Shown in pieces: positions 4,521-52,718 of a stretch of DNA of 64,000 bases. A program made the translations under genes and the position numbers. This DNA comes from Escherichia coli (GTDB lineage Bacteria > Pseudomonadota > Gammaproteobacteria > Enterobacterales > Enterobacteriaceae). Positions within the stretch are counted from its first letter, which is position 1, and each line of letters starts with the position of its first letter. The notes beneath the pieces were generated by a model. It was not told the DNA's origin. It did not search any database and worked only from the letters and a program-made list of their open reading frames with translations. The stretch lies in NCBI RefSeq assembly GCF_013122565.1, contig NZ_CP053258.1. One strand, written 5' to 3'.

Positions 4521-4676
4521 TTACAAGAACCAGGGGCGGAAATTCCAGCCCTCTCAATTGTTACGTAGCACGGACAGACTATACGCCTGATGGTCGTTCC
4601 CCATCGGGCCTGAAAACCGCAATACGCTGGGTAACAATCTTCGAGGGTAGCAGTTAACGCTGCTACCCTCTTTTTT
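4514..4676 (+). ncRNA. sroC: SroC-like sRNA derived from gltI-gltJ spacer (3' end at intrinsic terminator)
   Basis: Position between gltI and gltJ matches known SroC locus; 3' end defined by hairpin plus T-tract; 5' end approximate. Confidence 0.5.
4643..4676 (+). terminator. Intrinsic terminator/attenuator between gltI and gltJ
   Basis: GAGGGTAGCAG-TTAAC-GCTGCTACCCTC perfect stem followed by TTTTTT, 14 nt before gltJ ATG. Confidence 0.7.
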
Positions 4677-28607: not shown

Positions 28608-28716
28608 AAATTGAACACTTGAAAGTGTAATTTCCGTCCCCATATACTAAGCATCAGTAAAAAACTCCCGCCTTCTGGCGGGAGTTGCTATTTAATTACG
28701 TTACGCCGGAGCTGAC

Positions 28717-32140: not shown

Positions 32141-32170
32141 AAAAACCCGCTTTTTGAAGCGGGTTTTTTG
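32141..32170. terminator. Bidirectional intrinsic terminator between convergent lipA and tatE
   Basis: AACCCGC-TTTTTGAA-GCGGGTT hairpin flanked by A-run and T-run. Confidence 0.7.
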
Positions 32171-33811: not shown

Positions 33812-33840
33812 AAAAAAAACCCGCTGATTAAGCGGGTTTT
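33812..33840. terminator. Bidirectional intrinsic terminator between convergent crcB and cspE
   Basis: A8-CCCGCT-GATTA-AGCGGG-T4; reads as hairpin plus T-run on both strands. Confidence 0.7.
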
Positions 33841-46278: not shown

Positions 46279-46312
46279 GCCCGCCAGGTAAGCCCACCTG
46301 GCGGGCTTTTTT
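46279..46312 (+). terminator. Strong intrinsic terminator after citT
   Basis: GCCCGCCAGG-N8-CCTGGCGGGC perfect 10-bp stem followed by TTTTTT. Confidence 0.75.
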
Positions 46313-50045: not shown

Positions 50046-51611
50046 TTATGCAGTTTTGGTGCGAATCAGGTAGTCAAAAGCACTCAGAGAGGCTTTGGCA
50101 CCTTCGCCAGTAGCGATGATGATCTGCTTGTACGGAACCGTCGTACAGTCACCCGCTGCGAACACGCCTTTGACGTTGGTTTCACATTTCGCATCAATGA
50201 TAATCTCACCCATGCGGTTACGCTCGACTGCGCCTTCCAGCCAGTTAGTGTTCGGCAGCAGACCAATCTGGACGAAAATACCGGCCAGTTCGATGTTGTG
50301 AATATCGCCGCTGACACGATCACGATATTCCAGACCAACGACTTTGCTGCCGTCGCCTTTCACTTCCGTAGTTTGCGCATTCAGAATGATGTCGACGTTT
50401 TTCAGGCTGCGCAGTTTGTCCTGCAGAACCTGGTCGGCTTTCATTTCTGGCGCAAATTCCAGCAGAGTAACGTGTTCAACGATACCCGCCAGGTCGATTG
50501 CCGCTTCCACGCCGGAGTTACCGCCGCCGATAACCGCTACGCGTTTGCCTTTAAACAGCGGGCCGTCGCAGTGCGGGCAGTAGGTCACGCCCTTGGTGCG
50601 ATACTGATCTTCGCCAGGAACGTTCATGTTGCGCCATTTTGCACCAGTCGCCACGATAATGCTGCGTGCTTTCAGTACCGCGCCAGAAGCTGTTTCAATC
50701 TGATGCAGGCCACCTTCAACCGCTGCCGGGATCAGTTTGCTGGCGCTCTGGCTGTCGATCACATCAACGTCGTATTCATCAACGTGAACTTTCAGCGCAC
50801 CTGCCAGTTTCTGGCCTTCGGTCTTCGGTACAGAAATGTAGTTTTCGATATCAACGGTATCGAGGATCTGACCACCAAAACGTTCGCCCATCAAACCAGT
50901 ACGGATACCTTTACGTGCGGAGTAAATTGCTGCCGCTGCACCCGCCGGGCCGGAACCGACGATTAATACGTCATAAGCATCACGCTTGTTCAGCTCTTCT
51001 GCCGCACGTTTTTCCGCGCCAGTATCAATTTTGGCGACGATTTCAGTCAACGTCATGCGGCCCTGACCAAACTCTTTCCCGTTTACGAACACTGCCGGAA
51101 CGCCCATCACGTTGCGATCGGTGATTTCGTTCTGGAAGGTGCCGCCGTCAATTGCAGTGTGCTTGATGCGCGGATTCAGTACGCTCATCAGGTTCAGCGC
51201 CTGCACCACGTCCGGGCAATTGTGGCAAGAGAGCGAGTAATAGGTTTCGAATTCAAAATCACCGTCAATATGGCGAATCTGCTCCAGCAGAGACTGCGCT
51301 TCTTTCGACGGATGACCACCGGTCCACAGCAGCGCCAGTACCAGCGAGGTGAACTCGTGGCCCAGCGGGGAGCCTGCAAAACGTGGCCCCTGGTTGGAAC
51401 CTGGGTTGGTGATCAGGAAAGACGGCTTACGCACCGGCAAGCTGTTATCTTCTTTAAAGGTGACTTTGTCTGACAGTTCTGCGATTTCAGCCAACAGTTC
51501 CTTGATTTCTGCCGATTTAGCGCTGTCATCCAGCGTGGCAATTAACTCAACAGGCTTGGTCAATTTCTCAAGGTAAGCCTTGAGTTGAGTTTTCATATTT
51601 GTGTCGAGCAT
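50046..51611 (-). CDS. ahpF: Alkyl hydroperoxide reductase flavoprotein subunit AhpF, 521 aa
   Basis: Start at internal ATG 51611 ([10 protein letters not shown]…); CHNC and CPHC redox centres. Confidence 0.95.
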
Positions 51612-51697
51612 GTTTATCTCCTGGGCTTTAAACATCATCATGCAAGCGGCCTCTGCGGCTACCTGGATGCAGCTTGCATCATGGTGCGGGGAAGAAA

Positions 51698-51719
51698 ATC
51701 GGGTGCCGCAGCACCCGAT
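51698..51719 (-). terminator. Hairpin (partial terminator/attenuator) between ahpC and ahpF
   Basis: ATCGGGTGC-CGCA-GCACCCGAT perfect 9-bp stem; minus-strand downstream tract TTTTCTTCCCC. Confidence 0.5.
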
Positions 51720-51781
51720 TAATTAGGTGAATTTCCGAAGTATTTCGCGCCGGAGTTGGTAGCGCGAAAGACGAAGGAAAT

Positions 51782-52345
51782 TTAGATTTTACCAACCAGG
51801 TCCAGAGACGGAGCCAGAGTTGCTTCACCTTCTTTCCATTTAGCCGGGCAAACTTCACCTGGGTGAGAAGCAACGTACTGGGCTGCTTTGATTTTGCGCA
51901 GCAGGTCAGACGCGTCACGGCCAATGCCTTCAGCGGTAACTTCGATAGCCTGGATGATACCCTGCGGGTCAACTACGAAGGTCGCACGGTCAGCCAGACC
52001 TTCTTCTTCACGCATGTTTTCGAAGTTACGGGTCAGGGCGCCAGTCGGGTCGCCGATCATCGCATATTTGATTTTAGCGATGGTTTCAGAGCTGCTGTGC
52101 CATGCTTTGTGGGTGAAGTGAGTATCAGTAGATACTGCGTATACGTCTACGCCCAGTTTCTGCAGTTCTTCGTAGTGGTCAGCAACGTCACCCAGTTCGG
52201 TCGGGCATACGAAAGTAAAGTCAGCCGGGTAGAAGAAGAAGACGCTCCAGCGGCCTTCGGTATCTTTTTCGGTGATTTCGATGAATTCGCCGTTTTTGAA
52301 TGCCTGGTTTTTAAAAGGTTTGATTTTGGTGTTAATCAAGGACAT
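51782..52345 (-). CDS. ahpC: Alkyl hydroperoxide reductase peroxiredoxin AhpC, 187 aa
   Basis: Peroxidatic Cys in FTFVCPTEL. Confidence 0.97.
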
Positions 52346-52718
52346 CTATACTTCCTCCGTGTTTTCGATGGGATGTAAGGTAACGAATTTTTTTCGATTC
52401 CGCTAATGTGTTTCCATTATCGAATCGATAAGTTTTACCTTACAACCTTCGTAAGACAACTTTGTGAACTTTGCACCGCCGGCGGCGATAAAAAGTAAAA
52501 TGGGCCCCCTTTCCAGGTGACCGTGTAATCTGAACTACCCTTTGGTATCTTCAGCGCCTGTTCAGCAGGCTGCGTTGTTGCCCTTACAAATGCAACAACG
52601 ATAAGGATTACAACACCCTCATAAACAAAGGGCAATCACCTGATCTAAGCTCTTACCTATGACAGTGATAGGTTATGCCTTTTGCCCCATTTTTGCACTG
52701 ACTGAAAAGGATAAATAA
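52346..52718. promoter_or_regulatory. Divergent ahpC / dsbG control region
   Basis: 373-bp spacer between divergent starts; both genes are OxyR-regulated in E. coli per literature; exact site not mapped here. Confidence 0.5.

Follow-up and report, generated by a model that had tools for sequence, protein, structure and literature searches.

Three RNA hairpins of different origin in the ahpC-ahpF spacer of Escherichia coli: a conserved candidate terminator, an RNase III site and an ERIC remnant

The spacer between ahpC and ahpF of the E. coli operon (170 nt, 51612-51781, minus strand) probably holds three stacked RNA elements that differ in origin and in function. These are a hairpin that would act as a leaky terminator and 3' protector (H2), a long hairpin in which RNase III cuts (H3), and a hairpin next to ahpC that would be carried as a passenger (H1). 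All positions refer to the window, i.e. the whole stretch of 64 kb that was analysed. Coordinates of the features are given in the table.

AhpC is among the most abundant E. coli proteins, and far less of the reductase AhpF is needed. The locus would be a clean example of one promoter serving unequal partners, by leaky termination, hairpin protection and RNase III cleavage. What is added here is modest: H2 is ancient and covaries across Enterobacterales, H1 is a decayed mobile repeat, and the repeat site is polymorphic with three alleles. These three forms within E. coli provide natural alleles for testing the effects of ERIC elements on flanking genes.

Features of the ahpC-ahpF locus in the window
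Feature	Position	Strand	Evidence
ahpC CDS (187 aa), upstream gene	51782-52345	-	ORF and annotation
H1, imperfect hairpin made of two ERIC/IRU termini, 74-bp centre missing	51730-51782	-	comparison with K-12, ERIC copies
H2, perfect 10-bp stem with loop UGCG	51697-51720	-	structure, covariation
H2 tail, U-rich pyrimidine tract, UUCUUCCCCGC	51686-51696	-	K-12 Term-seq 3' ends at ~51696 and ~51694
H3, long imperfect hairpin immediately 5' of the ribosome-binding site of ahpF	51633-51686	-	fold; published RNase III site (~51669); 3' foot (51633/51632) with processed 5' ends
ahpF translation-initiation region (UUUAAAGCCCAGGAGAUAAAC, Shine-Dalgarno AGGAG)	51612-51632	-	AGGAG conserved in alignment
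ahpF CDS (521 aa), downstream gene	50046-51611, ATG at 51611	-	ORF and annotation
Terminator-like hairpin at the operon end, 3' of ahpF	50016-49991	-	terminator scan

The locus and the hairpin nearer ahpF

A 281-nt stretch across the spacer was matched in 5,422 of 5,426 complete E. coli genomes, with flanking genes annotated as ahpC and ahpF. Compared with shuffled sequences, the fold of the whole spacer had z = -4.55. Sequence scans of the window and K-12 spacers yielded no promoter-like sites. Rfam searches of the same two spacers with permissive E-values gave no family at gathering score. Comparisons between genera were based on at least 80 spacer loci among the matches listed, a set without Salmonella.

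Both hairpins that the first-pass annotation had placed in the spacer are present where it put them, on the minus (coding) strand. H2 had been described there as a perfect 9-bp stem with a 4-nt loop. The stem is indeed perfect and the loop has 4 nt, but the arms extend over 10 bp (51711-51720 and 51697-51706, AAUCGGGUGC/GCACCCGAUU; six G-C pairs). The tail quoted for the 9-bp version, TTTTCTTCCCC, is exactly the sequence found after it. Folded alone, H2 has -17.8 kcal/mol, and its GC-rich stem and 4-nt loop are within the ranges for intrinsic terminators (about 5-14 bp and 3-8 nt). Perfect 10-bp hairpins with loops of 3-8 nt are expected 0.3 times per 64 kb (dinucleotide shuffles), so that the occurrence of H2 inside a 170-nt spacer is far above chance.

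H2, together with H3, was found in about 5,420 of the 5,426 E. coli genomes. For covariation analysis, H2 was aligned across 27 Enterobacterales. 90.7% of the alignment cells were paired, as against 28-43% when the partner column was slid. Compensatory changes occurred in five of the ten pairs, and none of 500 shuffles reached the observed values. The fourth pair is UA or AU at a ratio of 13:11, and another pair changes from GC to CG or AU. Compensatory variants include GGCUGC/GCAGCC, GGAUGC/GCAUCC and GGGCGC/GCGCCC. All 27 taxa have a T-rich tail 3' of the stem (mean of 6.1 T in 9 nt). Among the matches listed, a CGGGUGC-loop-GCACCCG hairpin followed by a T-run was located just 3' of ahpC in Escherichia, Citrobacter, Kluyvera, Leclercia, Siccibacter, Mangrovibacter, Providencia, Proteus, Pantoea, Pectobacterium, Brenneria, Rosenbergiella and Arsenophonus. 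Likewise among the matches listed, Pseudomonas, Halopseudomonas, Polaromonas and Comamonadaceae carry non-homologous GC hairpins with T6-T8 at the position of H2.

The U-tract of H2 is weak (four U, then C). The K-12 allele, which has an 8-bp stem with six G-C pairs and the tail TTTTCTTCCC, was called terminator-like by the terminator scan. The window allele received no call, because two of its tail U pair with upstream A and thereby absorb part of the T-tract, leaving TTCTTCCC. A pairing between the tail (UCUUC, 51691-51695) and the Shine-Dalgarno sequence of ahpF (GGAGA, 51617-51621) appeared in the MFE fold and was absent from the centroid. It was 77% paired across 14 genera with zero compensatory changes, as expected for any pyrimidine tract set against a purine tract, and was rejected as unsupported.

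Several further observations were made at the locus and in the window. An N-terminal extension of AhpF from the in-frame upstream AUGAUGAUG was ruled out by a stop codon in between in Enterobacter sp. Bisph1; the RefSeq annotation, which gives the 521-aa form, also speaks against it. In E. coli DH5alpha (NZ_CP045741.1, L004 341-540), a deletion or rearrangement extends from the 3' arm of H2 to the start of ahpF, and ahpF is annotated there as a shorter protein with a separate accession. This could be a laboratory mutation or an assembly error. Upstream of ahpC, 52490-52585 (minus strand) matched the enterobacterial sRNA STnc70 of Rfam below threshold (33.4 bits, gathering score 40). A published Term-seq 3' end at K-12 638796, 149 nt upstream of ahpC, corresponds to about position 52494, the end of this match, which suggests a short transcript or an attenuated 5' leader in the dsbG-ahpC region. 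The window contains five more perfect hairpins with a stem of 10 bp or longer, at 4643-4670, 28663-28686, 32141-32168, 33816-33840 and 46279-46306 (0.3 expected in shuffles). These are probably terminators or repeats.

The RNase III hairpin and published RNA ends

H3 lies just outside the interval covered by the first-pass annotation and was missed there. It consists of about 15-17 pairs (-21 kcal/mol). RNase III substrates have an extended double-stranded region of about two helical turns; that of H3 is likewise extended, and the published cleavage site 639695 lies inside it (in vitro cleavage, Gordon et al. 2017). In 14 Enterobacteriaceae H3 was 96.7% paired. Its arms (CCAUGAUGCAAG... / ...GCUUGCAUGAUGAUG) are almost invariant across these 14 genera, and therefore no compensatory change was there to be counted. 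A purely structural role as an RNase III site would not need arms conserved this tightly. Among the matches listed, H3 is missing from taxa such as Proteus, Providencia, Pantoea, Erwinia and Brenneria, all of which carry H2. A local alternative hairpin within the 5' arm (ACCAUGAUGCA-AGC-UGCAUCCAGGU) was 83% paired with one compensatory cell; it was indistinguishable from shuffles and was not adopted.

All experimental data used here were obtained with K-12, the spacer of which carries a full ERIC and the 8-bp H2, unlike the window with its stump and 10-bp H2. Term-seq of K-12 revealed a strong 3' signal in three growth conditions, with curated ends at 639668 (LB OD 0.4, score 17950; M63) and 639670 (LB OD 2.0) (Adams et al. 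2021, supplementary file 1). Both lie 2-4 nt past the H2 stem, where the flank reads ...GGCACCCGAUU up to the mapped end, followed by U. The 3' end after H2 was classed only as 'orphan' in that study, its table of Rho termination regions contains no coordinate in 63965x-63969x, and its Term-seq data show no 3' end at the position of the K-12 ERIC/H1. Term-seq does not separate a termination site from a 3' end trimmed back to a stable hairpin. The searchable literature yielded no in vitro termination assay or read-through measurement for H2, and text searches on Term-seq and Rend-seq brought up nothing specific to this site.

Gordon et al. (2017, PMC5371410) placed the RNase III site at K-12 639695, which is 58 nt 5' of the ATG of ahpF, and confirmed it by in vitro cleavage with the purified enzyme. 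The half-life of ahpC mRNA was ~14 min in the wild type and ~6 min in the rnc mutant, and the stability of ahpF was unchanged. It was proposed there that hairpins 3' of ahpC block exonucleases. By tagRNA-seq, the K-12 spacer contained only processed 5' ends (5'-monophosphate; 639731/639732), and transcription started solely upstream of ahpC. Since all 5' ends mapped in the spacer are processed and no promoter-like site was found, ahpF would be made by read-through.

The ERIC-derived hairpin and its alleles

The second stem of the first-pass annotation, 8 bp long and nearer to ahpC, was recovered as the core of the longer imperfect H1 (TTTCGCGC, 51762-51769, and GCGCGAAA, 51743-51750; 11-nt loop). 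The full hairpin, with 21-nt arms of 81% complementarity, folds at -19.1 kcal/mol; its start lies within the stop codon of ahpC. In K-12 MG1655 the spacer measures 244 nt, and the 74 extra bp are located within the H1 loop. H1 and the K-12 insert together make 128 bp, which fold into one long hairpin. The standard ERIC-PCR primers (ERIC1R/ERIC2) match the insert at adjacent positions on opposite strands, with 2 and 1 mismatches; the two primer sequences co-occur in 233 papers. The K-12 element is repeated within E. coli genomes, where it is detectable at a median of 9 places and at most 15; the listed hits overlap no annotated feature. ERIC copies at rpsB, ybiT, mobH and ybhI-ybhJ align end to end with the K-12 element, and their termini match both H1 arms. 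BLAST homology of these copies spans query positions 5-121 of the K-12 element, both arms included.

The ERIC/IRU repeats of enterobacteria are described as 127 bp long and bounded by terminal inverted repeats (PMC2229807). The ERIC core is absent from the whole 64-kb window and H1 comprises only about 52 bp. It was therefore filed as an ERIC remnant and not as an intact ERIC. Judged from sequence comparison, H1 is the two ends of the 127-bp element after loss of its centre, and not a dedicated regulator. The literature searched contained no mention of ERIC together with ahpC. The ahp locus is said to be one of those listed in the 1991 ERIC paper. The K-12 ERIC (L001 813-934, minus strand) gave a weak full-length Rfam match to V_AS5 (Vibrio RNA AS5; model 1-129 of 129, 22.8 bits, E = 0.011), and an ERIC-like repeat may underlie this family.

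Three alleles of the site were distinguished in 5,426 complete E. coli genomes. The stump as in the window was found in 2,544 (47%), the full ERIC as in K-12 in 1,764 (33%), and a form without ERIC, as in O157:H7 and with a 128-nt spacer, in 1,115 (20%). A fifth of the species thus lacks H1 and a third has a much larger hairpin in its place, so H1 is not a required regulator. E. albertii has a stump identical in type to that of the window. Among the matches listed, a full ERIC occupies the same site in Enterobacter sp. Bisph1, Citrobacter werkmanii, Kluyvera, Siccibacter and Superficieibacter. Other truncations at this site were found in a soil MAG and in Citrobacter sp. FP75. In Pseudocitrobacter, Leclercia and strain RIT691, the place that ERIC takes in other genera, between the stop codon of ahpC and H2, is filled by REP/BIME-like palindromes (GCCGGATG...CTTATCCGGCCTAC). 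This short interval has repeatedly received repeats of different families.

On the simplest reading of the site history, ERIC was inserted long ago and has since undergone internal deletion repeatedly. The K-12 ERIC at ahpC-ahpF (L001 810-937) and the copy at the same site in Superficieibacter electus differ, as counted by eye, at ~6 of 127 positions; Kluyvera was also compared. This near-identity, despite the stump in E. albertii and in half of E. coli, could reflect a long-lived polymorphism or re-acquisition by recombination.

Mechanism, alternatives and known systems

In the mechanism proposed here, the functional core would be H2 with its U-rich tail, acting as a Rho-independent terminator that leaks. 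The OxyR-controlled ahpC promoter would yield mostly monocistronic ahpC mRNA that stops at H2, and a minority of transcripts would read through into ahpF, which has no promoter in the spacer. H2 would then shield the ahpC 3' end from 3' exonucleases. Read-through RNA would be cut in H3 by RNase III, which parts the cistrons and leaves an ahpC half capped, and so stabilised, by H2. In this way one promoter would supply far more message for ahpC than for ahpF, with H1 as a dispensable passenger, one extra stem after the stop codon. The spacer elements are thus proposed to set the AhpC:AhpF ratio; at the protein level, this ratio depends on translation efficiency too.

The mapped 3' end after H2 would arise from termination rather than from trimming. 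A reading that does without termination is considered unlikely. According to it, the whole operon is transcribed by read-through, RNase III (in H3) and other nucleases cut the RNA, exonucleases trim it back to H2, and differential decay alone makes the difference between ahpC and ahpF. It has been shown experimentally that RNase III cuts downstream of H2 and that ahpC mRNA is stabilised as a result (Gordon et al. 2017), processed 5' ends map to the foot of H3, the U-tract of H2 is short and interrupted, and Term-seq is blind to whether the 3' end stems from termination or trimming. This reading is weakened by the conserved U-tract and by the taxa with H2 but no H3. A U-tract is needed to terminate and not to block exonucleases, so its presence as a T-rich tail in 27 of 27 Enterobacterales favours termination. 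Proteus, Providencia, Pantoea, Erwinia and Brenneria retain H2 without H3, and distant Proteobacteria without H3 carry canonical T6-T8 terminators at the same site. In addition, the ahpC mRNA half-life is still ~6 min when RNase III is missing (Gordon et al. 2017).

The first-pass annotation had suggested that the two hairpins together set the ahpC:ahpF expression ratio by partial termination or mRNA stabilisation. For H2 this gained support from the K-12 Term-seq 3' end, the covariation, the T-rich tail and the K-12 terminator call. It did not extend to H1, an ERIC stump that is polymorphic and without mapped 3' end. The stabilisation itself is documented (ahpC half-life raised from ~6 to ~14 min by RNase III cleavage, Gordon et al. 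2017), but the cut is in H3, which that annotation had not listed. A dedicated two-hairpin unit, in which H1 helps to set the ratio, e.g. by slower ribosome release at the ahpC stop codon or by added 3' stability, appears very improbable. The stability of H1 and its start inside the stop codon would fit such a role, as would its retention in E. albertii and in the 2,544 E. coli genomes with the stump. In Yersinia, ERIC is also reported to affect how stable the flanking mRNA is (De Gregorio 2005, cited in PMC2229807). H1 is built from ERIC termini, however. It is absent from the 1,115 E. coli genomes of the O157:H7 type and replaced by the full 127-bp ERIC in the 1,764 of the K-12 type, other genera have REP-like repeats or nothing in its place, and no RNA 3' end maps to the ERIC/H1 position in K-12. 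That the spacer hairpins are chance palindromes with no role is practically untenable. The sole point in favour is that short inverted repeats are generally common in intergenic DNA, and for H2 and H3 the idea is refuted by their rarity in shuffles, the z-score of the spacer, the covariation and the mapped RNA ends.

Beyond the reading of H2 as terminator and protector, H3 as cleavage site and H1 as passenger, a more speculative extension is rather doubtful. The three ERIC alleles and the 8- and 10-bp variants of H2 might cause heritable differences in termination efficiency or ahpC mRNA stability, and with them lineage-specific AhpC:AhpF set-points and differences in peroxide scavenging; in the same proposal, and in view of its near-invariant arms, H3 might be read by a factor more sequence-specific than RNase III, or might switch with the local alternative hairpin to gate ahpF translation.

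The arrangement is that of an ordinary intra-operon terminator combined with a stabiliser, and the facts of the locus are mostly known (Term-seq end, RNase III site, ERIC family). Pairs of ahpC and ahpCF transcripts in B. subtilis and P. aeruginosa are examples of leaky terminators. The E. coli spacer resembles intra-operon leaky Rho-independent terminators in its GC-rich hairpin with a U-rich tail right after an abundant first gene, its mapped 3' end and its promoterless downstream gene, and ahpCF operons across Proteobacteria show this arrangement again in the corresponding position. It differs in that the U-tract of H2 is short and interrupted, and in the RNase III cut 30 nt further downstream.

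The site described by Gordon, Cameron and Pfleger (2017, mBio, PMC5371410) is at the same locus, as 639695 falls inside the H3 of the window (~51669), and the idea of a protective hairpin fits the role proposed for H2. The available text of that paper differs in placing the cut in the spacer and neither names H2 nor treats it as a terminator. The cleavage site is downstream of H1 and H2. Neither is the RNase III substrate, and in the same available text neither is reported as an RNase III site.

With ERIC/IRU/RU-1 (enterobacterial repetitive intergenic consensus), a miniature repeat in the form of an imperfect palindrome, the locus shares the full K-12 copy between the ahpC stop codon and H2, and the arms of H1 align with ERIC termini. 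Unlike an ERIC, the window copy is without the 74-bp centre including the core inverted repeat and would not prime in ERIC-PCR; it is a relic. In REP/BIME 3' stabilisers (e.g. malE-malF), an intercistronic stem-loop guards the upstream cistron from 3' exonucleases and raises its expression over that of the downstream gene. H2 is similar in being a stable intercistronic stem-loop with a proposed role in protection of the upstream cistron. It differs from REP/BIME in being single-copy, locus-specific and conserved, and the REP-like sequences in the spacers of Pseudocitrobacter, Leclercia and RIT691 are located upstream of H2.
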